Shown: piece after piece, positions 9,158 to 38,428 of the stretch
Numbering within the stretch: the first letter of the stretch is position 1
Layout: the number at the start of each line of letters is the position of its first letter
Source of the DNA: a bacterium
GTDB taxonomy: Bacteria > Zixibacteria > MSB-5A5 > GN15 > FEB-12
Length of the DNA stretch: 64,000 bases
Reading direction: 5' to 3'
NCBI GenBank assembly: GCA_020444475.1
Contig: JAHLKV010000004.1
Coordinates: forward strand, 6,494 to 70,493
Translations under genes and position numbers: made by a program
Notes under the pieces: model-generated
Database searches by the model: none
Told to the model about the DNA's origin: nothing
Seen by the model: the letters and a program-made list of their open reading frames with translations, nothing else

Positions 9158-9186
9158 GGCGGGCCGATCCATGAGATCGACCCGCC
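9158..9186. terminator. Hairpin between convergent genes (possible bidirectional terminator)
   Basis: GGCGGGCCGATC / GATCGACCCGCC (12-bp stem with one mismatch), 5-nt loop. TCTTCTTG follows on the + strand and a T-rich run follows on the - strand. Confidence 0.5.
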
Positions 9187-9246
9187 TCTTCTTGTGTGAT
9201 GACACACCACCTGAGCGGGTATGTCTTTCCAGGCGCGGAGCAGGAA

Positions 9247-13948: not shown

Positions 13949-14004
13949 GGCGCATTCGAGAGGTGAATCAACCCGATGTTCGACCAGTACCGGGAGGCCA
14001 GCTG

Positions 14005-21002: not shown

Positions 21003-22357
21003 GCCAAATGTCCCTCCACCATTTCTGGCTCATCGGGGCCGTGCTGAATCTTCTCGTTCAACAAGTAGATGAACAGCACGAAGAGGAGCAGGTAGATCAA
21101 TCCGAACAGGATCAAAGAGATCAGAACATCGCCGGCGGTTATCGATTTGGACAGGGCGTCTTCGGTTCGAAGCAACCCGTACACAATCCACGGTTGACGA
21201 CCGACCTCGGCGGTGAACCAGCCGAGCTGGTTGGCGGCCTGCGGAAGCAGGACGGAAAAAACGAGCACCCAGAGGAACCATCGCTTCTCCGGCAGGCTGT
21301 TGCGGAGCCAGAAGAGAAGTGACACCAACGACAGTAGAATCAACAGCATGCCGATTCCGACCATGAGGTGGTAGCTTTGGAAAACGGCGTTTACCGGCGG
21401 GCGGTCCTCGGGTGCGAAAGCCTTGAGCCCGGTAACGGGTGCTTCGGTATTGCCGTGTACCAGGAAGCTCAGGAAGCCGGGGATCTCCAGTCCGGACGTT
21501 GTTTCGTTGTTTTCATTGACCCAGCCGAACAGATACATGCCGGCCGGGGCGTGCGCCGGATAATGTCCTTCGAATGCCGCCAGCTTGGCGGGCTGTGTCT
21601 CGGCGACTGTCGAGGCGCTGGAGTGGCCGGTGACCAGTTGCAGCAGAGATGCGACGACGGCGATGACGATCGCGATCTTCATCGAGCCGAAGGCGAAGTC
21701 GCGATACTTCCTCTTGAGCAGGTAGAAGGCGCTCACACTCAGTACGAAAAAGGCGGCGGCCTGCCAGGCGCCCATGTAGGTGTGGCTTATCCGGTCAAGA
21801 AATGATGGATTGAAGACCACCTGCCAGAAGTCGACTATTTCTGCGCGGGCCTGGTCGCCGAGGCCTACGATGTGATGTCCGGTCGGTGTCTGTTGCCAGG
21901 AATTGGCGACGACGATCCAGATGGCCGAGAAGTGGGCGCCGAAGCAGACAAGGATGGTCGCGACGAAGTGCGTGGTCGGCTTCACTTTGTCCCAGCCGAA
22001 AAGCAGGATGGCGAGGAAGCCCGACTCGAGGAAGAAAGCGAACACTCCTTCGGCGGCCAGAGCACTGCCGAAGACATCGCCGACGTATCGTGAGTACGTG
22101 GCCCAGTTGGTACCGAACTGAAACTCCATGACGATGCCAGTGGCGACGCCGAGGGCAAAGATCAGTCCAAATATCTTCACCCAGAAACGGGTCATGCGAT
22201 GATACAGCTCGTTTTTCGTCTTGAGATAGATTCCCTCGGAGATAACCAGGAAGAGGCCCAGTCCGATACTCAGGGGAGGGAAGAGGTAGTGAAAGCCGAT
22301 GGTGAACCCGAATTGGATTCGTGACAGCATCTCGAAGTCCATAGACTCAGTCTCCAC
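20999..22357 (-). CDS. cydA: Cytochrome bd ubiquinol oxidase subunit I
   Basis: 452 aa. [25 protein letters not shown] and the [13 protein letters not shown] signature. Confidence 0.95.
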
Positions 22358-22528
22358 ATGTCTACCGTCCCGTCCCAGGTCGGGGCGATGTATTTTGTGA
22401 GTCTATGGTGCGGCCTAAACCGTGGAGCGTCAAGTGCAAAAGATATCGACGCAGGAGGCGGCTTTCACCGAATGAAATGAATGGTAAGATGAATTGCGAC
22501 GATCAAGAGAGAGAGATGGTCTCCGGTA

Positions 22529-23464
22529 TCATTGCGCCGACGACGTGGTCAACTCGGCGGTCGCGAATCTTAAGTAGTCGGGGCGTTCCGCTATAGTGCC
22601 ATAATCCTGCCGCTTAACAACGCGCCCTTCGCTGATCAGAACCATTCCCGGCATCTGCAGACCGTCACCTTCCAGTTCGCCAACCCCGTGCCCCTCGCCG
22701 AAAATCGCCTGCAGCCCACGCCACCACACCGAGGGGGCGATGAATTGACCGAGCGTTGCACGTCTCAGGTCGAATGCGCGATACAGCCGGCGGGAGGGAT
22801 CGCTGACGTGGTCAACGCCCTGCAATCCGTACGATCGAAGGACCTGTTTCGCTCGTTCATCGGTACTCATGTGAACGACGACCGGTCGCACCCCGGCTGA
22901 CTCGAGTCGGTCGCGAACGTCGGCCAGGTCAGTAAGCGCCTCTCTACAGAAGGAGCATCCGAAGTGGCGGAGAAAAACGAGCAGCACGGGCGCACGATGT
23001 GACAGGTCAGTTAATGAGAGACAGCAGGTGGTGCGAGATCCGCTGAGAGCGGCTTCGGGGGTAGCAAACTGGATCGAGAGATCGGGCTCTGCGATGGTGC
23101 TGCCTCGCGCAGCCTCGGCGAGTATGATGACGAACGGCGCCCACCATATAATGTCATTGGGGATAGTCATGAGTCCCCAGGAGAGAGGTACACTGCCCTG
23201 CCACCAGAACCACAGGAAGCCGAATGGGCTGGCTATCTTGCCGACCAGTCCGATCAGAACGAGGGGCCAGTGGCGCAGAGGATTCGTAGCCGCGATACCG
23301 TAGCCCAGTCCGAAAATACCGATCATCAGGCCGATTCCCTGCCAGAGAAAGAGATCGCGAGGAACCCCCATCCCGAACAGGGTAAATACCTGGGAGGGGA
23401 AGAAAATCGACCAGGCGGCAAAGAGCACATTGTATAGAGCCGCCGCCAGCAATACATGACGCAT
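22529..23464 (-). CDS. Membrane-anchored peroxiredoxin-like (AhpC/TSA_2-type) redox protein
   Basis: N-terminal ~4 TM region, C-terminal thioredoxin fold with LLVFLRHFGCSFCREAL. ATG 23464 (MRHVLLAAALYNV) preferred; the ORF-track start 23686 is a TTG that adds 74 non-descript residues. Confidence 0.7.
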   Translation of the reverse strand: MRHVLLAAALYNVLFAAWSIFFPSQVFTLFGMGVPRDLFLWQGIGLMIGIFGLGYGIAATNPLRHWPLVLIGLVGKIASPFGFLWFWWQGSVPLSWGLMTIPNDIIWWAPFVIILAEAARGSTIAEPDLSIQFATPEAALSGSRTTCCLSLTDLSHRAPVLLVFLRHFGCSFCREALTDLADVRDRLESAGVRPVVVHMSTDERAKQVLRSYGLQGVDHVSDPSRRLYRAFDLRRATLGQFIAPSVWWRGLQAIFGEGHGVGELEGDGLQMPGMVLISEGRVVKRQDYGTIAERPDYLRFATAELTTSSAQ

Positions 23465-23845
23465 CCAGCGGGGGGCGGCTCCTGGGGGTGGGTTTTTTGA
23501 AATCACGAACGCATTTCCTGTCGAGATTGTCCTGATTGGCCGTATTCCGGTTCCGCTTGTAAAACGATCCAATTGGAGTCCGGTTCCCGAAAGAGGCGAG
23601 ATCTCGCCGCCGGAGAGCGTCGCCAGTAGTTGTTCACAAACTGGACAAGCCGGGCGGGAGCGATCGAGCCCGGATCGCCTAAACAACCGACGGGGTGCTT
23701 CCGATACTTCTCTTAAGTACTAACTCCGGGGTTCGTATGCACATCCACGGCCCCCGGGCGGTTGGTTCGGCGGGGATGCTGGTGACCCCGCTCTTTGACG
23801 CCTGCCGGGCATTATGGGACGCGTTAGAACGAGAAAGGCCGAGTC

Positions 23846-26509
23846 ATGTTTACCCCTGGGGGGCACACTACAGACGCAGTCGAGGCGCAGTTTTCGTCCT
23901 GGGATTCGCCGGATCGCTGGCGACTTCTGGTTCAGGATTTCCCCGGCCTGTTGCTGGTTGTCGATCCTGAAGGCCGGATTCTGGTGAGCAACTATCACTC
24001 CCAGGAACTTCCTCACGCACCGGCATCAGGTCGGAGTCTCTGGCCCGCCATTAGCAATCGATTCCGTGATCAGATAGAAGAAGCCGTCGCGGTCGTTCAG
24101 GCGACCGGTGACATACGGCAGCTCGAGTTCCAGCTGTCCGGACCCGAAACGGCGCCGTGGTTCAGCGCGACGCTGGGACCGGTTCGTGAGGATGGCCGGA
24201 TCATGGCGGTTGCACTCGCCTGTTCGGACATAACGAAGTACAAGCGTCAGGAGGCTGAGCGTCAGGCGAATGAGAGCAAGTATCGCCTGCTGGCCGAAAG
24301 TTCAACGGATATCGTGCTCCGGAGCACAATAGATGGGGTCCTGAACTACATCTCCCCCGCGTGCCAGGCGATAGTTGGATACAGCCAGGCCGAACTGGTC
24401 GGCCAGAATGCTTTTGATTACGTACATCCGGACGACGTTGGGGCGGTTCGTGCGTTAGTCGCTGAGCTTCGCGATGCCGGCGATCAGCGACGCCTGGAGT
24501 TCCGGGTTCAGCATCGCACGGATGGTCACCGTTGGGTTGAGACGACGGTCCGCCGGGTGCACACCGATCGCGACAACGCTCCCGAACTCATATGCAGCGT
24601 CCGGGACATTTCCCGACGGCATGCCACGCTGGAGGCGCTGCGGGAGTCGGAAGCGCGCTATCGTTCGGTGATCGAGGGTTCGCCGATGGGGATGCATTTC
24701 TACGAGGTTAACGAACAGGACGAATTGATTTTCGTGGGGGCCAATCGGGCCGCCGATCTGCAACTCGACATCGCGCACAAGAGACTTGTCGGGCAACCCA
24801 TCCTCGAGGCTTTTCCCGGACTGGCCGAGACCGATATCCCGCAGAATTACCTTCGGGTCGCCCTGCACGGCGGCGACTACCATATCGAACAATCCCGGTA
24901 TGAGGATGCGGTGATCAAGGGCATCTACGAGGTTCACGCGTTTCAATCGACACCGCGTCGTTTATCCGTCATGTTTCTTGATGTGACTGACGTGCGCATG
25001 GCCATTGATGCGATCAGAGAGAGCGAAGAGAAGTTCCGTGAGATCGCCGAACTTCTGCCGGTAGGGGTGTACGAGACGGATAGCGACGGCAGAGTTACGT
25101 ATGTCAACAACCAGACGATGGCGTATTTCGGTCTCACCGAAAAGGACCTCAATGAAGGCTACAGCATACTTGATATCTTCAGCGCCGAAGATCGTATTCG
25201 TGCCGGCCGTAATCTTCGCCGTCTCCTGACCGGGGGGCGAACCAGCTGCAACGAATATCTGGTGCTGAGGAAGGACGGGACCAAATTCCCGGCTCGCTTT
25301 CATTCAACCTGTATCGTGCGGGACGGTAATCTGTGTGGCATCAGAGGTGTTTTGCACGACATCTCCGAGGAAAAGCGGCGCGAAGCGGAAGCGATTCGGT
25401 CGCAGAAGCTGGCGTCGGTCGGCGTGCTGGCCGGTGGTATCGCTCATGATTTCAACAATCTGCTCACGGGAATCCTGGGTAACGTGACGCTCGCCGCTCA
25501 CGATCTCCCGGCGGGCGACGAGCGACTCCAGCGCCTCCTGGATGCTGAACGGGCGGTCGATCGTGCCCGGGTGCTTACGTCGCAGTTGCTGACGTTCGCA
25601 GCCGGCGGTGATCCGGTCAAAAAGCAGGCGGACCTTCGCGGTCTGCTCGAGAGCGCCGTGCTGCGAACGGCGCAGGGAATGCATATCGATGTGGATCTGC
25701 ATATCCCGGAGCAGCTCCCGCCGATCGAAGTGGACGCCGAACAGATGGGGCAAGTTATGCATAACCTGCTCAAAAACGCCGGAGAAGCCATGCCCGACGG
25801 AGGCACGGTGGTTGTGTCGATCAGTACCGGCGAGGGCCAGGGCGGCGTTCCGACAGTGGTGATTGCGTTGGAAGATGAGGGGTGTGGAATAGAGGCCGAT
25901 GTCCTCCCGCACATTTTTGATCCGTATTACACGACCAAAGAGGGGCGTCTGGGACTTGGATTGGCCACGGCGTACTCAATCATAGCCAAGCACGGCGGTC
26001 GCATAACGGTAGAGTCGGAGGCGGGAAAAGGCGCCGTGTTCACAGTCGAGATTCCCACGCTGCAGTCTGTCGACAAGCCTCCTCGTCCGGCCGATGTTCC
26101 CCTGCGGGCGGGCTCGGTCAGGAAAATACTCGTGATGGATGATGAGTCATTCATCCGCGACCTGACCACACGTATCCTCAAGCGGCACGGTTGGAAAGTC
26201 GAGTGCGTTGCGGATGGACACGAGGCGATCCGGTTGTATCGCGCCGCTCTTAGGTCGGACGAGCCGTTCGATCTCGTTATACTCGATCTGACTATCCCGA
26301 ATGGACTAGGGGGCAAGGACACGATCGCCGAACTGCGCGCTATAGATCCGGGGGTACGGGCGATAGTCTGCAGCGGGTACTCGAATGATCCGGTGTTGGC
26401 GAACTACCAGAACTACGGTTTCGCCGGAATCGTCGCCAAGCCGTACCGCCCGGACGAGCTGATTCGTGTGGCTCATGACGTCTTGGCTGACAACGCGGTC
26501 GTGGTCTGA
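23846..26509 (+). CDS. Hybrid sensor histidine kinase (multiple PAS, HisKA, HATPase, C-terminal receiver)
   Basis: 887 aa. H-box GGIAHDFNNLLTGILGN; N/G boxes MHNLLKNAGEAM, EDEGCGI, GLGLATAYSII; REC domain ILVMDDE...DLVILDLTIPNGLGG...AKPY. No TM segment. Confidence 0.9.
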   Translation: MFTPGGHTTDAVEAQFSSWDSPDRWRLLVQDFPGLLLVVDPEGRILVSNYHSQELPHAPASGRSLWPAISNRFRDQIEEAVAVVQATGDIRQLEFQLSGPETAPWFSATLGPVREDGRIMAVALACSDITKYKRQEAERQANESKYRLLAESSTDIVLRSTIDGVLNYISPACQAIVGYSQAELVGQNAFDYVHPDDVGAVRALVAELRDAGDQRRLEFRVQHRTDGHRWVETTVRRVHTDRDNAPELICSVRDISRRHATLEALRESEARYRSVIEGSPMGMHFYEVNEQDELIFVGANRAADLQLDIAHKRLVGQPILEAFPGLAETDIPQNYLRVALHGGDYHIEQSRYEDAVIKGIYEVHAFQSTPRRLSVMFLDVTDVRMAIDAIRESEEKFREIAELLPVGVYETDSDGRVTYVNNQTMAYFGLTEKDLNEGYSILDIFSAEDRIRAGRNLRRLLTGGRTSCNEYLVLRKDGTKFPARFHSTCIVRDGNLCGIRGVLHDISEEKRREAEAIRSQKLASVGVLAGGIAHDFNNLLTGILGNVTLAAHDLPAGDERLQRLLDAERAVDRARVLTSQLLTFAAGGDPVKKQADLRGLLESAVLRTAQGMHIDVDLHIPEQLPPIEVDAEQMGQVMHNLLKNAGEAMPDGGTVVVSISTGEGQGGVPTVVIALEDEGCGIEADVLPHIFDPYYTTKEGRLGLGLATAYSIIAKHGGRITVESEAGKGAVFTVEIPTLQSVDKPPRPADVPLRAGSVRKILVMDDESFIRDLTTRILKRHGWKVECVADGHEAIRLYRAALRSDEPFDLVILDLTIPNGLGGKDTIAELRAIDPGVRAIVCSGYSNDPVLANYQNYGFAGIVAKPYRPDELIRVAHDVLADNAVVV

Positions 26510-26606: not shown

Positions 26607-26620
26607 TTGACTTAAGTCAA
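26607..26620. promoter_or_regulatory. Crp/Fnr-type box TTGAC-TTAA-GTCAA
   Basis: Perfect 14-bp palindrome, 73 nt upstream of the barrel gene start. Same arms as the box at 31609..31622. Confidence 0.6.
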
Positions 26621-26693
26621 GTTCCGGCAACCGTCATACGCCGATCTTTCATACAAAGGTATCAGGCAAACATCAACTACCACCCGGTGGTGT

Positions 26694-27977
26694 GTGAGGG
26701 AGTGTATGATTGGTCGTATAATGTTGGCGTCGGTGGGTTTGTGTCTGTGTCTGGCAGGAGCACCGGGGGTTTCGGCCGAAACCGAGGTGACAGTCAGCGG
26801 GCAGGTTCGAGCGCGTTCCGAAGTGGAACGGCGTTCTTACGAGACCGATGCCAGGACGAATGACTTCTCGGTGCTGCGAACGCGTCTGGCAATCAAAGCC
26901 TCAGCGGACAGTAATGTGGCGGCGTTCATTCAGTTTCAGGACAGTCGGGAGTTGGGAGGAGTAGATCTTCGCGGTAACGCCAATTCCGGTACCCTCAACA
27001 ACGGCGCCAATGTCGACATTCATCAGGCATACCTGCAGGTGGAGCAGCTCTGGGAGAACGGTCCGGGTCTTCGGGCAGGGCGGTTCGAGGTCAACCTCGG
27101 CAATCAGCGCGTGTTCGGATCGGTCGGGTGGAGCAATGTCGGCCGGTCCTGGGAAGGCCTGTGGCTCTGGTGTTCGCTCGACGAGGTGATGTTCGGCGGC
27201 TACTGGTTGAAGAAGATGACCGACACATCGACCGCGATCGATTCGGAGTTCGATGTTCTCGGAGTCACGGCGGATATCAAGAAGGCCGGATTGCAGCTGC
27301 TCGCATTTTACGAAAGCGACGAATCCTCGCAGTATTCGCAGTCTGCAGATTCGGATATCAACGCTCTGGACCGATTCTCAACCGGCGCCTATTTCAATCG
27401 GGTGTGGCGATCGCTCGATATCACGGCCAACGCCGTCTATCAGTTCGGCAACCGACGCGTCGGCGCCGACTCGAGCACGTACGGGGAGGTGGATATCGCG
27501 GCATTTCTGCTTGCCGCCGAGATCGGTTATTCCTTTGAGTGCTCCTCCAAACCGCGTCTGGCTTTCGGGATCGATTACACGTCGGGAGACAGCGACGGTG
27601 ACGACGATACGTGGAAGGCATACGACAATCTCTATTACACCGGTCACGCCTTCCGTGGCTACATGGATTACTTCATCGGATCCGGACCGGCCGGACTGGT
27701 CGATGCGATGCTGCGCGTCAGCTGGCTGCCGCTGGCCGGATGGACGGTTAAGGCTGATGTGCACTATTTCCAGACGGCAGCCGATTATGTGGATTTCCAG
27801 AATCAATCGACGAAGGATGTTGGGACCGAGATCGACCTGACGGTCTCAACGAAGCGAATCGCCGGGGTGACACTTTCCGGCGGGGGATCGCTGTTTGCGC
27901 CCAGTGAGTCGTTCGCCGGGGTGGAGAACCCGAAGACCGGGTTGTGGGGCTTTTTGATGTTGACGGCGGACTTCTGA
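26694..27977 (+). CDS. Outer-membrane beta-barrel, alginate-export (AlgE-like) family
   Basis: Signal peptide (MLASVGLCLCLAGAPGVSA). VSGQVRARSE..., LRTRLAIKA, VDIHQAYLQVE...GRFEVNLGNQRVFGSVGWSNVGRSWEG are family-typical. C-terminal ...GFLMLTADF. The start is ambiguous (GTG 26694 / ATG 26706 / ATG 26721). Confidence 0.75.
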   Translation: MRECMIGRIMLASVGLCLCLAGAPGVSAETEVTVSGQVRARSEVERRSYETDARTNDFSVLRTRLAIKASADSNVAAFIQFQDSRELGGVDLRGNANSGTLNNGANVDIHQAYLQVEQLWENGPGLRAGRFEVNLGNQRVFGSVGWSNVGRSWEGLWLWCSLDEVMFGGYWLKKMTDTSTAIDSEFDVLGVTADIKKAGLQLLAFYESDESSQYSQSADSDINALDRFSTGAYFNRVWRSLDITANAVYQFGNRRVGADSSTYGEVDIAAFLLAAEIGYSFECSSKPRLAFGIDYTSGDSDGDDDTWKAYDNLYYTGHAFRGYMDYFIGSGPAGLVDAMLRVSWLPLAGWTVKADVHYFQTAADYVDFQNQSTKDVGTEIDLTVSTKRIAGVTLSGGGSLFAPSESFAGVENPKTGLWGFLMLTADF

Positions 27978-28028
27978 TCAGCCAATCGTATGTGATGATG
28001 AACGTATGTAGATACAAGGAGAGCTGAG

Positions 28029-29372
28029 ATGCGAGTATTGGTGAAACTGGTGGTCGGGCTGGTGGCGGTGGTTGTGCTTTCTGCTCCGTCGTTCGGTCAA
28101 ACGCAGGCTGAGGTGGCCGGCAAATGCATGACCTGCCACAAAGAGAAATCACCCGGTCTGTACAAGCAGTGGTATATGAGCAAACATGGTGAGCACAAGG
28201 TGACGTGTATCGACTGTCACGGAGCCCAGAAGGGGGACGTTGACGGGTTTATGCATTACGATGGGTTCATCGCCACGCTGGTGACGCCGAAGGACTGTGC
28301 GCGATGCCATGAGAAGGAGGCCACCGAAGTGCAGGCGTCGTACCACGCCAGTGCCGGGCAGATTCTTGAGTCCAATGATGCCTATCTCGCTCACGTGACG
28401 GCCGGATCACCGGTGGCGATCATGGGGTGTGAGAGTTGTCACGGGGGCAAGGTCAGGATCGATCCGAATTCGCCGAACAAACTCGACCAAAAGAGCTGGC
28501 CGAACTCCGGTATCGGCAGGATCAACCCCGATGGCTCGCTTGGCTCCTGCAATGCCTGCCACACGCGGCACAGTTTCGACAAGGCGCAGGCGCGTCAGCC
28601 GGAGGCGTGCTCCAAGTGCCATCTCGGTCCGGATCATCCGCAGAAAGAGGTGTACGAAGAGTCGAAACACGGGAACGCCTACTACACCAATGTCGATGAG
28701 ATGAATCTTCACTCGGATTCGTGGGTGGTGGGGGTTGACTATCATATTGCGCCTACCTGTGCGACCTGTCATATGTCCGCGACGGTGAATCAGAAAGCGA
28801 CGCACGATGTCGGTCAGCGTATCAGCTGGACGCTTCGTCCGGTAGTCTCGATCAAGAAGGAGAACTGGAAAGCGAAGCGGGCCAATATGAAGGATGTCTG
28901 CACGTCGTGTCACGGGCAGGCGTTTGCCGACGGACATTACTACCAGTTTGACGCCGTGGTCGAGCTGTACAACGAGAAATTCGCCAAGCCGGCGAGCGAT
29001 ATCATGAAGCTGGTCTACGACAGCAAGGTGCTGGAAAACCAGGCCAGTTTCGGCAACGATATCGAGTGGACGTACTGGGAGCTGTGGCACCACGAAGGAC
29101 GCCGCGCGCGGCACGGCGCCGCCATGATGGGGCCCGACTATACGTGGTGGCACGGCATGTACGAAGTTGTCCAGCACTTCTATTTCAAGCTCATACCGCA
29201 GGCGCGGGAGTTCGACAATCCGGCGATTAACGCGCATATCGACAGCCTGTTGACGAATGATCCGATGCATGCCTGGATCAACAAGGAAACTTCGGGCCTG
29301 AAGAAGTCGATCCGCGACGGCCAGATGCAGAAGATGTACGAGGTCTTTTTTGAGAACAGGCAGGGGAACTAG
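28029..29372 (+). CDS. Periplasmic octahaem cytochrome c, hydroxylamine-oxidoreductase (HAO) family
   Basis: 447 aa. AAGGAG RBS and signal peptide. Exactly eight CXXCH (CMTCH, CIDCH, CARCH, CESCH, CNACH, CSKCH, CATCH, CTSCH). HAO-like landmarks CNACHTRHSF, CSKCHLGPDHPQKEVYEESKHG, CTSCHGQAFADGHYYQFD. Confidence 0.75.
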   Translation: MRVLVKLVVGLVAVVVLSAPSFGQTQAEVAGKCMTCHKEKSPGLYKQWYMSKHGEHKVTCIDCHGAQKGDVDGFMHYDGFIATLVTPKDCARCHEKEATEVQASYHASAGQILESNDAYLAHVTAGSPVAIMGCESCHGGKVRIDPNSPNKLDQKSWPNSGIGRINPDGSLGSCNACHTRHSFDKAQARQPEACSKCHLGPDHPQKEVYEESKHGNAYYTNVDEMNLHSDSWVVGVDYHIAPTCATCHMSATVNQKATHDVGQRISWTLRPVVSIKKENWKAKRANMKDVCTSCHGQAFADGHYYQFDAVVELYNEKFAKPASDIMKLVYDSKVLENQASFGNDIEWTYWELWHHEGRRARHGAAMMGPDYTWWHGMYEVVQHFYFKLIPQAREFDNPAINAHIDSLLTNDPMHAWINKETSGLKKSIRDGQMQKMYEVFFENRQGN

Positions 29373-30883
29373 TGTTTCAACGGTATCTGAGGTTCATTCG
29401 CGGGGTCGCGGTCAATCGCGTGGGAATGATCGGGGTCGTCCTGACGACCTCGTCGTTCATCACGTTCGTGATTCTCGAATTGGCGCGCCTGGCGGGGTTG
29501 CTGACCAATGCCTATATCGGGCTGGTGACGTACCTGCTGTTTCCGAGCTTGTTTGTGATCGGCCTGGTGCTGATTCCGATCGGCTGGCGTCTTCGCAAGA
29601 AACAAACCGGCCGCACGACGCGGGAACTGTTGTCCGATCAGTTTGCACCGGATGATACAAAGGGCGGGCTGTTCGGATCGCGGGTCTTCATGATAGTCGG
29701 TATGTTCACCCTGGCCAACGTGATCTTCCTTGGCGCCGCGAGCACTCGGATGCTCGGCTTCATGGATGAGGCGGAGTTCTGCGGAACGGCCTGTCACAGC
29801 GTCATGAATCCGGAATGGGTGACCTATCAGGATTCGCCGCACGCGCGAGTGAAGTGCGTGGAGTGTCATGTCGGCGAAGGAGTCGGCGCCCTGGTGGACA
29901 GCAAGCTGAATGGGACGTGGCAGATGATATCGGTGACGTTTGATCTGCTCGAGCGACCGATTCCCACGCCGGTGCACCAGCTTCGCCCGGCCCGCGAAAC
30001 GTGCGAGAAATGCCACTGGCCGGACAAGTTCTACGGCAGCCGCCTGAAGACGCTGGTGCACTATCAGCGGGATAGTCTGTCAACGCCGCAGTATACGACG
30101 TTGAATCTGAAGGTCGATGCCGGTCGGGCCGGCAACAAAAGCGGGATTCACTGGCATGTGGCGGCTGAGAACGAAGTGCGATATGTGTCGGTCGATGACG
30201 AACGGGAGGAGATGGTTTTGGTGGAGGTCCGGCAGCCGGACGGTTCGTTTAAGCGGTATCGCAACAGCGCATTGATAGATCCGGAGACCGCTGCGACGGC
30301 GACCGAGGCGCGATCGCTGGACTGCATCGACTGCCACAACCGCGCGACGCATATCTATGAGCAGCCCGGTCCTGCGCTGGACAAGCGGATGGAACTGGGA
30401 TTACTGCCACGCACGCTGCCGTATCTCAAGCGCGAGGCGCTGGCGGCGCTCACGACGAACTACCCGGACTCGGTCGCGGCGCGCGACGGAATCGCGAACC
30501 ATCTGTACGGGTTCTACCAGCGGCAGTTTCCTAAGGTTGCGACCCAGCAGTCGGCCGCCATCGACAGTGCCATTTCGGTTTTGCAGGCGGTCTATTTCCG
30601 CAACGTTCATCACGGCATGAACATCACCTGGGGCGCATACGAAAGCCATATCGGACATCGTGGCAATAAGGACGGCTGCTTCCGCTGCCATAACCCGAAT
30701 ATGATTGCGGAGGATGGGGAGGCGATTCGGAGCGACTGCACCATGTGTCACTCGATTCTGGCGTTTGATGAAACGCGACCGTTCGCCTACCTGAATGCGC
30801 TCGATACAACCGATGCAGAGTACCGGATGCACGAGTCCCTTCGGCAGGAGTTCCTTCGCTTTATGGAAGAGCAGGCAGAGTGA
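29372..30883 (+). CDS. Membrane-anchored multihaem cytochrome c (3 TM + NapC/NirT-like region; ImcH-like architecture)
   Basis: 503 aa. GTG start shares one nt with the upstream stop (TAGTG). Three N-terminal TM helices. Five CXXCH (CVECH, CEKCH, CIDCH, CFRCH, CTMCH) plus one CX3CH (CGTACH). Confidence 0.75.
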   Translation: MFQRYLRFIRGVAVNRVGMIGVVLTTSSFITFVILELARLAGLLTNAYIGLVTYLLFPSLFVIGLVLIPIGWRLRKKQTGRTTRELLSDQFAPDDTKGGLFGSRVFMIVGMFTLANVIFLGAASTRMLGFMDEAEFCGTACHSVMNPEWVTYQDSPHARVKCVECHVGEGVGALVDSKLNGTWQMISVTFDLLERPIPTPVHQLRPARETCEKCHWPDKFYGSRLKTLVHYQRDSLSTPQYTTLNLKVDAGRAGNKSGIHWHVAAENEVRYVSVDDEREEMVLVEVRQPDGSFKRYRNSALIDPETAATATEARSLDCIDCHNRATHIYEQPGPALDKRMELGLLPRTLPYLKREALAALTTNYPDSVAARDGIANHLYGFYQRQFPKVATQQSAAIDSAISVLQAVYFRNVHHGMNITWGAYESHIGHRGNKDGCFRCHNPNMIAEDGEAIRSDCTMCHSILAFDETRPFAYLNALDTTDAEYRMHESLRQEFLRFMEEQAE

Positions 30884-30895
30884 AGATTCCTTGTC

Positions 30896-31603
30896 ATGGC
30901 GGTCGGTTTTGTGTATCCATGCCTCATGAATGCCGCCGACCGACTCAAATCGGGACCACTCTTTTCTGAACTGGACGTCGACGAGATCGCCGCGCTGTCG
31001 TCGATCGTCAGCTACAAGTCGATTTCTCGTGGCGGGGTGCTGTTTCTCGAAGGTGACCCCGCCACCGGATTTTTCGTGCTGCTCAGCGGCAGTGTCCGGA
31101 TTTACAAAGCGTCCCCCGACGGCAAGGAGTACACGCTGCACCGAATTCGTCCCGGGCAGATGTTCGCCGAGGCGGCGATTTTCCGCGGTCGCGGTTTCCC
31201 GGCGAATTGCATGGCGCTCGAAGACTCGGAGGTGGCGTTTTTCCCGAAGGTCGGATTTGTCGATTTGCTGGCGAACTCGCCTCAGATCGCGCTGAAAATT
31301 ATCGGCAGTCTCTCCAACTGGCTTCGGGAGTTCACCCGGAAGCTGGAAGAGCTGTCGCTGAAGGAGGTTCCGGCGCGGGTGGCGTTTTACCTGCTTCGAC
31401 GACTCGATGCCGCCAACTCCGAGACATTTCAACTCGACACCAGTAAGACCGAACTGGCCGCCCAGCTCGGGACGATCATAGAAACCCTCTCCAGAACCTT
31501 CCGGAAACTTCGCGACGCAGGTATTATCTCTATGAATGGTAGAGAGATAACAGTGTTAGACCGGGAGCGGCTTGAGGCCGTCGCCGACGGCGAAAAAATC
31601 TGA
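30896..31603 (+). CDS. Crp/Fnr-family transcriptional regulator (no FNR-type Cys cluster; HcpR/Dnr-like)
   Basis: cNMP-binding-like beta-roll (GGVLFLEGDPATGFFVLLSGSVRIYKASPDGKEYTLHRIRPGQMFAE). HTH with recognition helix ETLSR (E--SR motif). Alternative start at ATG 30926. Confidence 0.85.
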   Translation: MAVGFVYPCLMNAADRLKSGPLFSELDVDEIAALSSIVSYKSISRGGVLFLEGDPATGFFVLLSGSVRIYKASPDGKEYTLHRIRPGQMFAEAAIFRGRGFPANCMALEDSEVAFFPKVGFVDLLANSPQIALKIIGSLSNWLREFTRKLEELSLKEVPARVAFYLLRRLDAANSETFQLDTSKTELAAQLGTIIETLSRTFRKLRDAGIISMNGREITVLDRERLEAVADGEKI

Positions 31604-31608
31604 ACCGG

Positions 31609-31622
31609 TTGACCTAAGTCAA
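31609..31622. promoter_or_regulatory. Crp/Fnr-type box TTGAC-CTAA-GTCAA
   Basis: 14-bp element with perfect inverted TTGAC/GTCAA arms, 5 nt after the crp-like stop and 71 nt upstream of ATG 31694. Nearly the same spacing as box 1 has to its gene. Confidence 0.6.
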
Positions 31623-31693
31623 GGGATAATATAGACCGGTTTCCGACATTATCGACAGGAAGCGCAATCACTGCCGAGATGAAGGAGGCCGCT

Positions 31694-32461
31694 ATGCCGG
31701 TGAGAGATATTATCAGGATCGACGAAAATAAGTGCGATGGCTGTGGGGACTGTGTCACCGCCTGCGCCGAAGGGGCGTTGCAGATTATCGACGGCAAAGC
31801 GAAACTGGTCAGCGACATCTACTGCGACGGTCTTGGGATGTGTATCGGCAACTGTCCGCAGGGGGCGATAACGATCGAGAAGCGAGAGGCCGACGAGTAC
31901 GACGAGGAAGCGGTCGAGGCGCATCTGGCGGGTCAGGGTCAACCGCAGCCGGAGCCGATTTCATTGCAGGTTCCCCATGCCTGTCCGGGATCAATGGCGC
32001 GCAGTTTCGGAACCGCAGCCGAGCCGAACTCGACGCCGGCGGCTCTCAGCGGAGTGCCTTCGCAGTTAAGGCAATGGCCGGTGCAGTTAATGCTGGTACC
32101 GCCGCATGCTCCGTATCTGAGAGACGCCGATATCCTCATCTGTGCCGACTGTGTGCCGTTTGCGGTCCCCGATTTCCACAGCCGGTTCCTGGCGGGGCGG
32201 GCATTGCTGGTTGGATGTCCCAAGCTCGATGACGTGCAGTTCTATCTCCAGAAACTGACTCAGATTTTCGCTGAGGCGAAACCACGCCGGATCACCGTGC
32301 TCAAGATGGAGGTACCGTGCTGTAACGGAATCGCTCAGGTGACAAAGATGGCGAGAGATCAGGCGGCGCCGGAAGTTCCGATCGACGTCCACACGGTGGG
32401 TGTGCGCGGCGATATCAGCACGCATCATGCGCCGGGTGGCATGCGCAGGGAAGCGATGTAG
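31694..32461 (+). CDS. Soluble 4Fe-4S dicluster domain protein
   Basis: CDGCGDCVTAC and CDGLGMCIGNCP ferredoxin motifs at the N-terminus, plus a Cys-containing C-terminal domain (CADCVPF, GCPKLD, VPCCNG). ATG 31694 is preceded by AAGGAGG; the ORF track starts at 31679. Confidence 0.75.
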   Translation: MPVRDIIRIDENKCDGCGDCVTACAEGALQIIDGKAKLVSDIYCDGLGMCIGNCPQGAITIEKREADEYDEEAVEAHLAGQGQPQPEPISLQVPHACPGSMARSFGTAAEPNSTPAALSGVPSQLRQWPVQLMLVPPHAPYLRDADILICADCVPFAVPDFHSRFLAGRALLVGCPKLDDVQFYLQKLTQIFAEAKPRRITVLKMEVPCCNGIAQVTKMARDQAAPEVPIDVHTVGVRGDISTHHAPGGMRREAM

Positions 32462-32475
32462 CCGAAGCGGGTTGG

Positions 32476-33609
32476 ATGATGAACGTTATGACTGAGACGA
32501 AGCGGCAGGTGGCTGAGCGGCCGAAACCAATTCGCAACCGGGAGAAGCCGATTCAGAAGGTCCGCTTCTGGGTACAGACGGCCTTCGCGGCGTTATGCGT
32601 CTGGATCGGTCTGGAGATGTTTTTGTTCGTTCGCTATCTCGAGTCGAACGGCCAGACGACGTTTATAGAGCGGCCGCCGGGAGTCGACGGGTTTCTTCCG
32701 ATTAGCTCACTCATGAACCTCTACTACTGGGTGCACACGGGGGAGATACACCCGTATCATCCGGCCGGCCTGTTCATTCTGCTGGCGATCATCCTCATGT
32801 CGCTGGTGTTCGGCAAGTCGTTCTGTTCCTGGCTTTGTCCGGCGGGGTTTATCTCCGAGGTGGTTGGTGATCTGGGTAAGAAGCTGTTTGGGAAAAACTT
32901 CCGCGTGCCTCGCTGGTTGGACTGGCCGCTTCGCAGCCTGAAGTACCTTCTGCTGGGCTTCTTCGCCTACTCGATCTTTTTTCTGATGAATGAAACGGCC
33001 CTTCGCCTGTTTCTCGACAGTCCGTATAATCTCGTGTCCGATATCAAGATGTACTATTTCTTCGCCGACATCTCCCGGTTTGCGCTTATCGTGATTGGAG
33101 GGCTGCTGCTGGCCTCGCTGTTCGTGCGCAACTTCTGGTGTCGGTATCTCTGTCCGTACGGCGCTTTGCTGGGTGTTGTCTCGCTTCTCAGTCCGCACAA
33201 GATCAGGCGCAATCCGATCTCCTGTATTGACTGCGCGAAGTGTGCGAAGGTCTGCCCGTCGTCGATCAAGGTCGACAAAGTCAGGACGGTGGTCTCCGAT
33301 GAATGCACGGCCTGCATGAGTTGTGTCGATGTCTGTCCGATCGCAGACACGCTGCATCTGCAGTCGCTGGTTACACGAAAGCGGGTCAACAAGCGGAGTG
33401 TGGCTATCGGCGTGGTAGCGATCTTCATGCTGGTAACGGGGTTCGGGATGCTGACCGGTCATTGGCAGAACGATGTTCCCCGCGAGGAATACCTTCGGCA
33501 CCAGGAGTATCTTGACAGCTATGGACACCCGACCCGAACGCAGGACATCTCCCGTCTCCGCGACGAAGATGGCGCGGAGGGTGCGTTTCAAACCCGGGAC
33601 GGGCGCTGA
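32476..33609 (+). CDS. Membrane polyferredoxin, NapH/MauN/YccM-like 4Fe-4S binding protein
   Basis: TM helices with CSWLCPAG and CRYLCPYG motifs, then CIDCAKCAKVCP and CTACMSCVDVCP ferredoxin motifs. Confidence 0.8.
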   Translation: MMNVMTETKRQVAERPKPIRNREKPIQKVRFWVQTAFAALCVWIGLEMFLFVRYLESNGQTTFIERPPGVDGFLPISSLMNLYYWVHTGEIHPYHPAGLFILLAIILMSLVFGKSFCSWLCPAGFISEVVGDLGKKLFGKNFRVPRWLDWPLRSLKYLLLGFFAYSIFFLMNETALRLFLDSPYNLVSDIKMYYFFADISRFALIVIGGLLLASLFVRNFWCRYLCPYGALLGVVSLLSPHKIRRNPISCIDCAKCAKVCPSSIKVDKVRTVVSDECTACMSCVDVCPIADTLHLQSLVTRKRVNKRSVAIGVVAIFMLVTGFGMLTGHWQNDVPREEYLRHQEYLDSYGHPTRTQDISRLRDEDGAEGAFQTRDGR

Positions 33610-33905: not shown

Positions 33906-35042
33906 ATGCCCTCGCACAGCACATTAATTCTAGAGAATGGTACCAGCATCCGTGGTGAGTCGTTCGGCGCTTACAAAGAGACCGCCGGCGAGGTTGTATT
34001 CAACACCGGGATGGTCGGATACCCGGAAACACTCACCGATCCGTCTTATCGCGGCCAGATTCTCGTGATGACCTATCCGCTGGTCGGGAACTATGGTGTA
34101 CCGGAGCCGAAGAGGGATCGATTCGGTCTGCCGCTCGGGTTCGAGTCTGAACGGATTCAGATTGCCGGTTTGGTCGTATCGGAGCACTCGATGCGCTACA
34201 GCCACCACACGGCGGTGCGCAGTTTGTCCGACTGGATGGAGCGCGAAGGGATTCCCGGTCTGTGTGGGGTGGACACCCGTTCCCTGACCCGCCTGCTTCG
34301 CGACAAGGGCAGCATGCTCGGAAAGCTCGAGACCGACAGTGCCACCTGCGAGTTTTTCGATCCCAACGCCGGTGACCTGGCATCGCAGGTGAGCGTATCG
34401 GAGGTCACACGGTTGGAATCGGGGGTTGAGTCGGCGCCGACGGTGGTGCTGGTCGATTGCGGATGCAAAGCGAATATCGCGCGGAGTCTGCTCAGTCGCG
34501 GATTGAATGTCGTCCGCGTTCCGCACAATCATTACTTCCTCAACATGGATTTCGACGGTCTGGTGATCTCCAACGGTCCGGGGGATCCGAAGATGTTCTC
34601 CGAGACGACGCGCAATGTTGAACGGGCTCTCGCGGTCGGCAAGCCGATCCTGGGGATTTGTCTGGGCAATCAGATTCTGGCCCGGGCGGTCGGCGCCGAG
34701 ACGTACAAGCTGAAATTCGGTCACCGTTCTCACAATCAACCGTGTATTGAGATGAAGGTCAACGGCAACGGAAATGGCAACGGGCATAGCTTGGAGTCAT
34801 TGCGTACACCGGTCACCGGCCGGTGTGTGATCACCTCGCAGAATCACGGCTACGCGGTCCGTCGCGAAGGGCTCCCGCCGGACTGGCGGGTCTGGTTCAC
34901 CAATGCCAATGACGGAACAGTAGAGGGGATTCGGCACGTCAGCCGACCGTTTGCATCGGTGCAGTTTCATCCGGAGGCGAAACCGGGACCGGTCGACACG
35001 GCCTGGATATTCGACGACTTCGCGAAAGAGGTGAAGAAATGA
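33906..35042 (+). CDS. carA: Carbamoyl-phosphate synthase small (glutaminase) subunit
   Basis: 378 aa. GEVVFNTGMVGYPETLTDPSYRGQILVMTYPLVGNYG, catalytic Cys in GICLGNQILA, SQNHGYAV, SVQFHPE. Contains an extra loop VNGNGNGNGHSLESLRTPVT. Confidence 0.95.
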   Translation: MPSHSTLILENGTSIRGESFGAYKETAGEVVFNTGMVGYPETLTDPSYRGQILVMTYPLVGNYGVPEPKRDRFGLPLGFESERIQIAGLVVSEHSMRYSHHTAVRSLSDWMEREGIPGLCGVDTRSLTRLLRDKGSMLGKLETDSATCEFFDPNAGDLASQVSVSEVTRLESGVESAPTVVLVDCGCKANIARSLLSRGLNVVRVPHNHYFLNMDFDGLVISNGPGDPKMFSETTRNVERALAVGKPILGICLGNQILARAVGAETYKLKFGHRSHNQPCIEMKVNGNGNGNGHSLESLRTPVTGRCVITSQNHGYAVRREGLPPDWRVWFTNANDGTVEGIRHVSRPFASVQFHPEAKPGPVDTAWIFDDFAKEVKK

Positions 35043-38000
35043 GCGGTACCCACGGCAACGGTCATTCACTTCCCGATACCGTCCTCGTGCTCGGCAGTTC
35101 CGCATTGAAGATTGGTGAAGCCGGGGAGTTCGACTACTCCGGCAGCCAGGCGATTAAGGCGTTGAAAGAGGAGGGGATCCGGACGATCCTGATCAATCCG
35201 AATGTCGCCACTATTCAGACGTCGGAGAATTTTGCAGACGAGGTCTATTTCACGCCGGTCACACCGTATTTCGTCGAGAAAGTGATCGAAGAAGAAAAGC
35301 CCGATGCGGTTTTGCTCGGGTTTGGCGGGCAGACCGCGCTCAACTGCGGCGTCGAGTTGTACCGCCAGGGCGTGTTCGAGAGGCACGGTGTGAAGGTCCT
35401 GGGGGCGCCGATCGAGTCGATCCTTGACACCGAGGACCGTGAGCGATTTGTCGGCCGGTTGAGCGAGATCAATGTTGCGACGGCGCGCAGTGTACCGACG
35501 AAATCGGTCGACGAAGCCCTGGCGGCGGCCTCGAAGATCGGCTATCCGGTCATGGCGCGGGTGGCGTACGCGCTGGGCGGACTCGGCTCCGGGATATGTC
35601 GCGATGAAGCTGCCCTGCGAGAGCTGGCGCGACGCGCCTTTGCGCATACCGAGCAGGTTCTGATTGAAGAATACCTCGAGGGTTGGAAAGAGATCGAGTA
35701 CGAAGTAGTCCGCGACAGCAGCGACAACTGCATCACCGTCTGCAATATGGAAAACCTCGATCCCATGGGGATCCACACCGGTGAGAGCATTGTCGTAGCG
35801 CCGAGTCAGACGTTGACCGACGACGAGTACCAGATGCTCCGCGAGATTGCTATCCGGGTGGTTCGGCATCTGGGGATTGTCGGCGAGTGCAACATCCAGT
35901 ATGCCCTGTCGCCGCACGAGCGGGAATATCGCGTCATCGAGATCAACGCCCGACTCTCGCGCAGTTCCGCGCTGGCCTCGAAGGCGACCGGGTATCCGCT
36001 GGCGTTCGTCGCGGCCAAGCTGGCGCTGGGCAGACCGCTGACCGAGATCAGCAACTCGGTCACGCAGGTGACACGTGCCTGTTTTGAACCGGCGCTGGAC
36101 TATATCGTGGTCAAGGCGCCGCGCTGGGACTTGAAGAAGTTCGAGGGTGTGTCGGAGCGGATAGGGTCGGCCATGAAGTCGGTGGGCGAGGTGATGGCGA
36201 TCGGACGCAAATTCGAAGAAGCCCTTCAGAAAGCCCTGCGCATGCTTGAGACCGGTGCCCGCGGGGTGGTGCTCAACGACGGAATCACGTTCAACGACTT
36301 GCGTACGTCGCTGGCGGAGCCGACCGAGTGGCGTATCTTCGCGGTTGCTGAAGCGCTCAAGACCGGCATGTCGGTCGATGAGATTCACGAGATAACCCAC
36401 ATTAATACATGGTTTCTCGACAAGATTGCGGCGATCGTCGAAATAGAGCAGCAGCTTCGCGAGGTCGGAGCCGGTGAGCTTGACCGTGAGTTGCTGCTCA
36501 AAGCCAAGCGTCACGGTTTCTCCGATGCCCAGGTCGGTGTCGCGATCGATCGTAATGAAGACTTCGTGCGGGGCAAGCGTCGCGAGATGGACCTTCGTCC
36601 GGTCGTAAAGCAAATCGACACCCTCGCCGCCGAGTACCCCGCTCAAACGAACTATCTGTACCTGACATACAACGGCAGTGACGACGATGTCTCGTTCGGT
36701 CAGGAAGGCAGCGTGATGATTCTCGGTCCGGGGGCGTACCGGATCGGCAGCTCTGTCGAGTTTGACTGGTGCTGTGTGAACGCAGCCCGGACGCTTCGCG
36801 AACTGGGTTATCGCACGTTGATGGTGAACTACAATCCGGAGACGGTGAGCACCGACTACGACGAGTGCGATCGGCTGTATTTCGATGAGCTGTCGTTTGA
36901 GACGGTGGCGGATATCTACGAGATGGAGCGCCCGATGGGGATGCTCCTGTCGGTCGGTGGACAGATTCCGAACAGTCTGGCGATGCGCTGCTACCGGGCC
37001 GGCATGCGGGTGCTGGGAACATCGCCGCGCGATATCGACCGCGCCGAGAACCGTCACACTTTCTCGAGTTTGCTGGAGGAGTTGAAGCTGCCGCAGCCCG
37101 ACTGGCGCGAGCTGACATCGATGGATGACATTTATTCCTTCGCGAAAGATGTCGGTTATCCGGTAATCATACGACCGTCGTATGTGCTGTCGGGCGCCGC
37201 GATGGCGGTCGCCGGGACCGACGAGGAGCTGAAAACCTACCTGGACAAAGCAGCGGAGATCTCGCGCGACCAGCCGGTTGTGGTCAGTAAGTTCGTCGAG
37301 GACGCCAAAGAGATAGACGTCGATGCGGTCGCCCGCGACGGTGAGCTGGTGTGCTGGGCAGTGTCCGAGCATGTCGAAAACGCCGGCGTGCATTCCGGTG
37401 ATGCGACTCTGGTGCTGCCGCCTCAGCGTACGTATCTGGAGACGATGCGCCGTATTCGTCGGGTGACAAACCAGGTGGCCGAGTCGCTCTCGATCAACGG
37501 GCCGTTCAATATCCAGTTTCTGGCCAAGCTCAACCAGGTGATGGTGATAGAATGCAATCTGAGAGCTTCGCGCTCTTTCCCTTTCGTATCGAAAGTTCTC
37601 AAACGGAACTTCATCGATACCGCGACGCGCGTGATCATGGGTCGTCCGGTAGACCCGTCTGATCAGTCGTTTCTCGACCTCGATTATGTCGGGGTCAAGG
37701 CGCCGCATTTCTCGTTCAGTCGACTGGAGGGGGCCGATCCGACACTGGGTGTGGAGATGGCGTCGACCGGCGAGGTTGCCTGCCTGGGGTGGGATTTCGA
37801 CGAGGCCTTCTTGAAGGCGCTTATTTCGGTAGGGTTCCGTCTGCCGCTCAAGCGGGTGCTGTTGTCGACCGGTCCTATCGAAAGTAAAGCCGCCTTCATG
37901 CGCGGGGCGCGCAATCTCGAGGAAATGGGCGTGCAATTCTATGCGACACAGGGCACGGCGGACTTCATGCGCACGGCCGGACTCGAACCGGAAGTGCTTC

Positions 38001-38254: not shown

Positions 38255-38428
38255 CCGCACCTGTGAGTCCGATCGGTTCTCGACCGTATATCGCACGCAG
38301 TTCTCCCGATGGATGCTTCGTTTCCGTGTGAGACCTGACTCGGAGTCCGATGAAACGGGACGAAGAGACTCCCTAATCGAACGACACCGTTGTTTGTGAC
38401 TCCGATCGAGAGTCGGCAGGCACACTGA

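Follow-up and report, generated by a model that had tools for sequence, protein, structure and literature searches.

A conserved pair of HAO-family octahaem and ImcH-family cytochrome genes as a candidate quinol-dependent N-oxide reductase module in Zixibacteria

The window analysed here is a stretch of 64,000 nucleotides from a bacterium of the Zixibacteria (GTDB lineage Bacteria; Zixibacteria; MSB-5A5; GN15; FEB-12), covering positions 6,494 to 70,493 of contig JAHLKV010000004.1 in assembly GCA_020444475.1. Between positions 26,607 and 33,609 it carries a module of six genes, at whose centre a gene for an octahaem cytochrome c of the hydroxylamine oxidoreductase (HAO) type is followed by a gene for a membrane-bound hexahaem cytochrome. 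An earlier reading of the letters alone (the sequence-only reading) had described the six genes as co-directional and proposed that they form a chain from the quinol pool to the periplasmic octahaem. All six were indeed found as open reading frames (ORFs) of the + strand, and we show below that the two cytochrome genes form a pair that is conserved in many phyla. We suggest that the pair probably acts as the core of a periplasmic N-oxide reductase. The features of the module, together with the kinase gene directly 5' of it, are as follows.

23846..26509, + strand: g0, PAS-rich hybrid histidine kinase (PAS x3, HisKA, HATPase_c, REC), directly 5' of the module
26607..26620, no strand: palindrome TTGACTTAAGTCAA, exact TTGAC-N4-GTCAA, ~90 bp 5' of the barrel gene g1
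26694..27977, + strand: g1, predicted AlgE-type barrel with signal peptide (PF13372); the ATG at 26706 is the probable true start
28029..29372, + strand: g2, predicted periplasmic HAO-family octahaem cytochrome c, IhOCC/epsilon-Hao-like (PF13447, eight CXXCH)
29372..30883, + strand: g3, predicted ImcH-family inner-membrane hexahaem quinol dehydrogenase; its GTG start overlaps the g2 stop
30896..31603, + strand: g4, regulator of the Crp/Fnr family that lacks the FNR Cys cluster (PF00027 cNMP_binding and PF13545 HTH_Crp_2)
31609..31622, no strand: palindrome TTGACCTAAGTCAA, exact TTGAC-N4-GTCAA, ~60 bp 5' of g5
31679..32461, + strand: g5, cytoplasmic Fe-S protein; ferredoxin domain at the N-terminus, Cys-rich domain with no family match at the C-terminus
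32476..33609, + strand: g6, NapH/MauN-like membrane polyferredoxin (Fer4_5 x2, four transmembrane segments)

The GTG start of g3 and the TAG stop of g2 have one base in common (TAGTG), as the sequence-only reading had noticed, and this tight spacing is a general property of the pair. Homologues of g2 number in the thousands at about 65-76% identity and come from Zixibacteria, GN15, Calditrichia, Ignavibacteria, Eisenbacteria, Acidobacteriota, KSB1 and other lineages. One protein that falls into a 90%-identity cluster with g2 carries a Zixibacteria label. Scanning species-representative genomes with g2 gave 480 loci, and the neighbourhood counts reported here refer to the best 80 of these 480, which are the closest relatives and no random sample, and which total 1.29 Mb. 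g3 lies directly 3' of g2 in 67 of the 77 loci with room for it, with an estimated gap whose median is near zero, and the loci with the pair belong to more than ten phyla, including Zixibacteria, GN15, Ignavibacteria, Calditrichia, Eisenbacteria, Acidobacteriota, KSB1 and Marinimicrobia. This adjacency of an octahaem and a three-helix hexahaem cytochrome fits the proposed chain from the quinol pool.

The other genes of the module are found less often. The barrel is directly 5' of g2 in 20/70 loci and anywhere in the locus in 26/80, while at least two of the crp, fer and napH-like genes are present in 11/80, in varying positions and orientations. Since an unbiased clustering of all neighbouring ORFs in the 80 loci gave no frequent neighbour besides the pair and these named accessories, the conserved core is the g2-g3 pair, to which the barrel and the crp-fer-napH trio are added as accessories. 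The co-occurrence in related genomes that had been expected for a three-gene core of barrel, octahaem and membrane cytochrome was therefore seen for the two cytochromes, and for the barrel in a minority of loci. In one locus of GN15 (L001) the entire seven-gene order is repeated, kinase included, and the orthologue of g0 at the same position is 49% identical. Because g0 is syntenic in L001 alone and most other loci lack it, its membership of the module is weakly supported.

In agreement with the sequence-only reading, a signal peptide and a total of eight CXXCH motifs (residues 33, 60, 90, 134, 174, 194, 244 and 291) were found in g2. The protein matches PF13447 (E 2e-30, 106.4 bits against a cut-off of 21.9), and its best match in the PDB is IhOCC of Ignicoccus hospitalis (4QO5; E 1.4e-45 by sequence, 4.6e-85 by family profile), after which the next structural relatives are N. 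europaea HAO (NeHAO), kustc0458, KsHOX and HDH. With the profile, E-values ranged from 4.6e-85 to 2.7e-31 for 4QO5, 1FGJ, 6H5L, 4N4J and 6HIF. An assignment of g2 to the Otr/MccA/ONR group was rejected, as ONR, NrfA and MccA gave E ~1e-8 or worse, compared with 1e-31 to 1e-85 for HAO-family structures. By the PF13447 match and these far stronger profile scores, g2 can be placed in the HAO family and not with Otr/MccA, as had been proposed, and within that family it appears IhOCC/epsilon-Hao-like.

Two local features further characterize g2. D202 and H203, which follow the haem 6 motif (CSKCHLGPD202H203), align with D267 and H268 of NeHAO (CATCHSGVD267H268), which we take to be the active-site Asp-His pair; the pair of g2 is invariant in 120/120 close homologues. 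Between the motifs of haem 4 and haem 5, g2 has an insertion (WPNxGIGRxNPDGSxGxC) in common with IhOCC, its closest solved relative; the insertion is kept in 115/120 close homologues. IhOCC differs in having Asp-Val where g2 has Asp-His, and is ~70 residues longer with large insertions. IhOCC has been called an octaheme nitrite reductase (PMC9250108), in vitro activity with both nitrite and hydroxylamine as substrates for reduction is reported of epsilon-Hao enzymes (PMC8042395), and a homologous enzyme has been proposed as the nitrite reductase of Caldithrix abyssi, a nitrate-ammonifier without nrfA (PMC5317091).

The sequence-only reading had pointed to the Tyr in GPDYTWWHG of g2 as the candidate for the cross-link Tyr of HAO. 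The best 150 matches of g2 in the representative library, which reach E ~1e-40, include no nitrifier HAOs, and the hao genes of ammonia-oxidizing bacteria (AOB) used for comparison were taken from metagenome contigs with a NeHAO fragment as query. The cross-link loop reads GLAHVNPGGWTY467TEGWG in NeHAO, SLAHQHWGYTYTVGW in a second AOB type and GAAMMGPDY372TW374WHG in g2. MAFFT and hhalign both place Trp374 of g2 opposite Tyr467 of NeHAO, and Tyr372 opposite Trp465, which is Tyr in the second AOB type. Moreover, the loop of this second AOB-type HAO (YTYTVGW) is as long as that of g2 and aligns gap-free in the Trp374/Tyr467 register. When the loops were aligned by hand from the W-G that follows them, Tyr372 fell on Tyr467, but this register was overruled by the two programs and by the AOB loop of equal length. 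The Tyr that had been pointed out thus aligns two residues before Tyr467 and does not stand up as the cross-link candidate. In kustc0458 the same loop reads VSWWWG, with Trp at the cross-link position as in g2 (an xxWWxG loop in both), and its structure is reported to lack the cross-link (PMC8042395).

These alignments bear on the possibility that g2 is an oxidative P460-type HAO, in which Tyr372 would cross-link a neighbour's haem 4, hydroxylamine or hydrazine would be oxidized and g3 would feed the quinone pool, as in a forward hydroxylamine-ubiquinone redox module (HURM) without c554. What speaks for it is that Tyr372 is invariant in 120/120 close homologues, that it sits in the same helix-2/helix-3 loop as Tyr467, only two residues away in a local alignment of low posterior support, and that g2 has the Asp-His pair seen in oxidative HAOs; AOB likewise hand HAO electrons to a NapC/NirT-family cytochrome. 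The register given by both programs and by the gap-free AOB loop speaks against it, as do the lack of amo or hzs genes and the Fnr-type control described below. In addition, the position of Tyr372 is occupied by Phe, Trp, Ile or Val in distant relatives (Trp in IhOCC; Val in kustc0458, reported to have no cross-link; PMC8042395), and a packing role therefore fits Tyr372 better than a covalent one. We consider an oxidative role of g2 very unlikely. Since confidence in the local alignment is low, we hold it likely, not proven, that g2 has no cross-link Tyr; Trp374 opposite Tyr467 would then point to g2 as a reductase.

g3 is a protein of 503 aa with transmembrane (TM) segments at residues 16-41, 47-75 and 100-126. 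They are followed by one CX3CH motif (C137GTACH) and by CXXCH at 162, 211, 318, 436 and 456, all invariant in 17 homologues, so that the three TM helices, five CXXCH and one CX3CH of the sequence-only reading were all recovered by counting. ImcH homologues are known to have three TM helices, an atypical CX3CH beside the membrane domain, 5-9 CX2CH and a length of ~450-520 aa (PMC6295460), and g3 has three TM helices, a CX3CH beside TM3, five CXXCH and a length within this range. The likeness extends to the spacing of the haem motifs. Those of g3 (138, 162, 211, 318, 436 and 456) are separated by 24/49/107/118/20 residues, compared with 24/49/106/117/20 in ImcH of Geobacter sulfurreducens (GSU3259), whose motifs are at 132, 156, 205, 311, 428, 448 and 486 (PMC6295460). 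The seventh, C-terminal motif of GSU3259 is missing in g3, as it is in the homologues of Zixibacteria RBG-1, Geothrix and Anaeromyxobacter tabulated for ImcH, that of Zixibacteria RBG-1 being listed with six motifs (PMC6295460). The environment of haem 1 has been described as proximal His137, distal Gln179, Lys173 and Glu127 (ImcH preprint); matched by position, g3 has H142, Q184, K178 and D132 at a constant offset of +5, and all four are invariant in the 17 homologues.

Likeness of g3 to NrfH is confined to residues 103-173 (TM3 and the first haems), which match 2J7A_C with insertions that turn CXXCHxM into CX3CHxxM. The score against the NrfH equivalog TIGR03153 is 49.5 bits, below the cut-off of 134.2, while the superfamily-level model PF03264 is passed (27.0 against 24.1). 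Judged by motif layout and residue positions, g3 can be assigned to the ImcH family of quinol dehydrogenases. The hallmarks and the motif spacing agree with the earlier suggestion that g3 is closer to ImcH than to the NrfH/CycB tetrahaems. Because of its low confidence scores (mean pLDDT 61, pTM 0.35, haem regions below 50), the AlphaFold2 (AF2) model of g3 was used for the three TM helices alone.

The signal peptide and AlgE-type barrel that the sequence-only reading saw in g1 were borne out, the barrel by a match to PF13372 Alginate_exp (E 4.7e-29, profile positions 4-377 of 395); the closest homologue has 423 aa. As a sequence search against the PDB gave no match, a fold search was required. 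The AF2 model of g1 has 18 strands (pLDDT 76), and Foldseek ranked AlgE at the top (TM score ~0.63, identity only 12-15%), followed by MOMP, chitoporin and Occ channels. These proteins are monomeric substrate channels, and the barrels of porin-cytochrome conduits are much larger. The model thus describes g1 as an 18-strand channel of the AlgE type. What sets g1 apart from AlgE is that no genes for alginate biosynthesis and export are present in the window or in related loci, and that its companions are periplasmic multihaem reductases. In 19 homologues of g1, ten Arg do not vary, among them R39/R41 and R62/R64, which form i/i+2 pairs on the first two strands; the ten are compatible with an anion path and may make the channel selective for anions, invariant acidic residues being as numerous. 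A more distant Alginate_exp barrel was found 3', and not 5', of hao or imcH in L065 (2565-3812; Aminicenantes), L030, L048 and L067.

The fold of g1 also bears on whether the module serves extracellular electron transfer (EET) or metal reduction, with g3 acting like Geobacter ImcH, g2 as a periplasmic carrier or metal reductase and g1 as the access or exit in the outer membrane. Such a role would be in line with the ImcH architecture of g3: ImcH is required for high-potential extracellular acceptors in Geobacter (PMC6295460; ImcH preprint), and the ImcH homologues of Zixibacteria RBG-1, Ignavibacteria and Acidobacteria have been catalogued as candidate EET quinol oxidases (PMC6295460). However, no further multihaem gene, and in particular none for an outer-membrane or extracellular protein, is a recurrent neighbour of the pair, and the enzyme-type Asp-His pair of the active site is kept in g2. 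The barrel, with only 18 strands and a fold like the AlgE, MOMP and Occ substrate channels, is much smaller than porin-cytochrome barrels, and g1 was rejected as a conduit of the MtrAB/PCC type; the electron exit of porin-cytochrome kind that the sequence-only reading had left open is therefore unlikely. Furthermore, the accessory genes in related loci, which we describe below, belong to N-oxide metabolism (nrfHA in place of the pair, qNOR, Rrf2). We regard EET as a distinctly unlikely function of the module.

That the module is under Crp/Fnr-type control, as had been proposed, is supported by its palindromes. The identical-arm sequences TTGAC-N4-GTCAA before the first and the fifth gene were found at 26607 and 31609. 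TTGACNNNNGTCAA occurs three times in the window (26607, 31609, 50702), compared with 0.07 expected, and three occurrences were reached in 0/100 shuffles. The third palindrome, TTGACGGGTGTCAA at 50702-50715, is within a PAS-PAS-PAS-LuxR regulator gene (50027-52132, - strand) and could be a chance occurrence or an internal regulatory site. The 1.29 Mb of related loci contain 27 exact sites, 22 of which lie within 300 bp 5' of the ferredoxin gene or of the first module gene (the barrel where present, else g2), and palindromes with one mismatch occupy the same places in further loci. Before the ferredoxin gene the palindrome is also present in L001, L015, L017, L023, L028, L035 and L046. Since this placement is kept across several phyla, even in loci without an adjacent crp gene, it is the pattern expected of a real conserved operator. 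As the palindrome sits before the barrel and not between the barrel and g2, the barrel is most simply co-transcribed with g2. A scan for sigma-70 promoters and terminators gave no convincing + strand promoter near either palindrome, although the consensus may not suit this phylum.

The likely reader of these sites is g4. It has the cNMP_binding and HTH_Crp_2 domains and two Cys only (Cys9 and Cys105), consistent with its earlier description as a Crp/Fnr regulator without the FNR Cys cluster, and it scores below the cut-off of all Crp/Fnr equivalog models (best FtrB, 102.5 against 211). Its recognition helix (TIIETLSRTF) carries the E--SR motif, which we take to be typical of FNR-box binders. 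Because the FNR Cys cluster is missing, the signal of g4 should not be an FNR-type [4Fe-4S] cluster; a haem, as in Dnr/NnrR/HcpR-like regulators, or another ligand is possible.

The second palindrome precedes two genes for Fe-S proteins. g5 had been read as a soluble protein with two [4Fe-4S] clusters. Its ferredoxin domain was confirmed, with Fer4 families and PDB matches both confined to residues 11-68, but the second cluster motif is atypical (CX5CX3C), and the C-terminal ~190 aa (residues about 70-260) form an additional Cys-rich domain with six conserved-looking Cys (102, 155, 158, 180, 214 and 215), for which no Pfam, NCBIfam or PDB match was found. The earlier description of g5 is thus only approximately correct. 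A signal peptide is missing from g5, and the protein does not resemble NapG. g6 has the layout of a NapH-type membrane polyferredoxin, as predicted, with two Fer4_5 domains (E 1.2e-22), four TM segments, two CX3CP and two CX2CX2CX3C motifs, and its scores are below the cut-offs of both NapH models (87.8 bits against 213 for TIGR02163, 82.4 against 234 for NF007013).

Clues to the substrate came from loci in which the accessories have other partners. In L163 (5201-10405; GCA_028289585.1, JANQPI010000026.1) the genes for an Rrf2 regulator, a barrel, nrfH, nrfA (PF02335, E 2e-125) and a NapH-like protein follow one another in this order, and the barrel and the NapH-like protein are 48% and 56% identical to g1 and g6, respectively. 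Both accessories thus work for a canonical ammonifying nitrite reductase in L163 and for the hao-imcH pair in the window. The sequence-only reading had known of no outer-membrane barrel in described hao or nrf loci; a barrel of the g1 family does precede nrfHA in this one. In L042 (192-3894; Holophagae FeB_10) a qNOR gene (NorB cytochrome-c-like domain and COX1, 758 aa) is directly 5' of hao on the same strand, and no ImcH-like gene follows hao. An Rrf2 regulator with three Cys (C-x6-C-x5-C) is found in six hao loci, where it replaces the Crp/Fnr arrangement, and is directly 5' of hao in L067 (9546-9962) and L071 (9546-9968). Genes for DUF438-hemerythrin-PAS, DUF1858/DUF2249 and cupin proteins are present in a few hao loci (three to four for DUF438-hemerythrin and DUF1858). 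L162, L164, L166 and L167 share a synteny of ornithine carbamoyltransferase, barrel and LiaF-like genes around 4800-9600. In L162 and L167, but not in L164 and L166, a hao of a second type (468-469 aa, 47-52% identical) and without imcH stands between the barrel gene and the LiaF-like one, as if the enzyme had been gained or lost beside a retained channel.

The nrfHA swap, the qNOR, Rrf2 and DUF genes point, by association, to nitrite, NO or hydroxylamine as the substrate and not to metals or sulfur. They have to be weighed against the idea that the pair reduces a sulfur compound or an oxyanion of another kind (sulfite, tetrathionate, polysulfide or selenite), for which the barrel would be the uptake channel. 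Sulfite or tetrathionate is indeed reduced by relatives with the wider multihaem fold, clade I of the HAO family has been proposed to have a sulfur role (PMC9213671), and no nitrate or nitrite gene is fixed beside the pair. On the other hand, the closest characterized relatives of g2 act on N-oxides, the same barrel and NapH-like protein accompany NrfHA, and in other loci the neighbours include qNOR and NsrR-like Rrf2 genes. We therefore think such a substrate unlikely.

We would like to point out that several observations weigh against assigning the module to N-oxide reduction. Besides the invariance of Tyr372 and the low posterior support of the alignment around the cross-link position, nap, nar, nir, nor and hcp do not recur across the 80 loci. 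The barrel is missing from most loci and is retained without hao in L161, L164 and L166. Among the window ORFs of at least 100 aa that were scanned, there is no nrfA, nir, nap, nar, nor or hcp, which agrees with the earlier statement that hcp, nrfA and nir are absent from the window, and no other nitrogen-cycle gene was found elsewhere in it. ImcH is known for EET and not for N-oxide reduction (PMC6295460; ImcH preprint), and a role in sulfur-compound metabolism has been proposed for HAO-family clades other than those of nitrifiers and anammox bacteria (PMC9213671).

Taken with these reservations, the locus is probably a quinol-dependent periplasmic N-oxide reductase module, built like NrfHA or a 'reverse HURM' from different parts. 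In this model, menaquinol would be oxidized by g3 at the periplasmic face, at haem 1 (the CX3CH beside TM3), and electrons would pass along the six haems of g3 to g2, with which it may form a physical complex. g2 would be a soluble octahaem protein, presumably a trimer, whose five-coordinate haem 4 could reduce nitrite and probably also hydroxylamine and NO. The product would most likely be ammonium, which we hold with less certainty than the module itself because the product of kustc0458 is NO (PMC8042395). The anionic substrate would be admitted across the outer membrane by g1. Under anoxia or on exposure to N-oxides, g4 would activate two units, one of g1-g2-g3-g4 and one of g5-g6, by binding the TTGAC-N4-GTCAA boxes before g1 and g5. 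g5 and g6 would be a co-regulated, cytoplasm-facing Fe-S pair that could feed electrons or maintain the redox state of the system. Whether the proposed chain conserves energy would depend on its electron-donor side.

Each part of the module belongs to a known family, and its logic is that of NrfHA or of a HURM in reverse; the pairing of hao with imcH appears to be the new element. As in NrfHA, the gene of a membrane quinol dehydrogenase of the NapC/NirT type adjoins the gene of a periplasmic multihaem N-oxide reductase. NrfHA differs in its enzyme, which is a pentahaem protein with CXXCK at the active haem, whereas g2 is an octahaem protein with CXXCH; in the module the enzyme gene comes first, and the anchor g3 has three TM helices and six haems in place of one and four. 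The epsilon-Hao of Campylobacterota and Caldithrix abyssi, compared here by description, is like g2 a periplasmic HAO-family octahaem protein of ~450 aa, reported to be without the cross-link Tyr. Its partners are tetrahaems of the NapC/NrfH type, or NapM/ACIII in the proposal for Caldithrix (PMC5317091), where g2 has a three-helix hexahaem protein of the ImcH family, and the g2 locus, in contrast to that of epsilon-Hao, is not beside nap.

HURM (HAO-c554-cM552) and the anammox HAOr (kustc0458/0457) resemble the module in combining an HAO-family octahaem protein with a dedicated electron-transfer partner. The module, in contrast, has no c554 or dihaem partner, is probably reductive, and belongs to the context of an Fnr-regulated anaerobe. 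GSU3259 ImcH has been studied as an EET component with PpcA as its partner, whereas g3 is operonic with an HAO-family enzyme. No description of hao-imcH as an operon was found in the parts of the literature consulted on ImcH with hydroxylamine oxidoreductase or octaheme with nitrite: the ImcH survey takes ImcH homologues, that of Zixibacteria included, as EET components (PMC6295460), and the Caldithrix genome paper proposes other electron donors for its epsilon-Hao (PMC5317091).

The surroundings of the module can be described briefly. 5' of it the window has cytochrome bd, an AhpC-like fusion and the PAS hybrid kinase. The cydAB genes (cytochrome bd oxidase) and a gene for a membrane-anchored AhpC/TSA-like protein are at 19977-23686 on the - strand, divergent and 5' of the kinase and the hao module. 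The rest of the window includes carAB, glycogen genes, chemoreceptors and T9SS-sorted proteins. A 1119-aa ORF at 35066-38425 (- strand), antisense to carB (35039-38254, +), is almost certainly a shadow ORF of a sequence with 58% GC and no gene. At 12995-15390 a MerR and B12-binding regulator (CarH-like) adjoins a DNA photolyase gene, which suggests a light-responsive unit.

In metagenomes, hao is commonly read as a marker of nitrification, nrfA of ammonification and imcH of EET. Our results indicate that genes of the hao and imcH families form one conserved, co-regulated operon in lineages of anaerobic heterotrophs; the genome scan with g2 gave ~480 species-level matches. Should the pair turn out to reduce nitrite (or hydroxylamine or NO) with quinol, too little of the nitrogen retention is being credited to these phyla, some of the 'EET potential' that is read from imcH is wrongly assigned, and the HAO family gains a defined membrane partner. 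In the literature searched, we found no description of a dedicated outer-membrane entry route for periplasmic nitrite reductases; that an AlgE-type barrel is found beside both hao and nrfHA points to such a route for the substrate.

It is conceivable, though we put this forward tentatively and with some doubt, that Hao-ImcH, equipped with a conserved operator of the Fnr type and an anion channel of its own in the outer membrane, is a third widespread system of respiratory nitrite ammonification beside NrfA and ONR, which at least several hundred species of FCB-related phyla and Acidobacteriota would possess. If so, surveys of dissimilatory nitrate reduction to ammonium that are based on nrfA would miss it, and surveys based on hao or imcH would tally it as nitrification or metal reduction, respectively. 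The ImcH family would then have periplasmic HAO-type enzymes as its main partners, and what it does in the EET of Geobacter would be derived.

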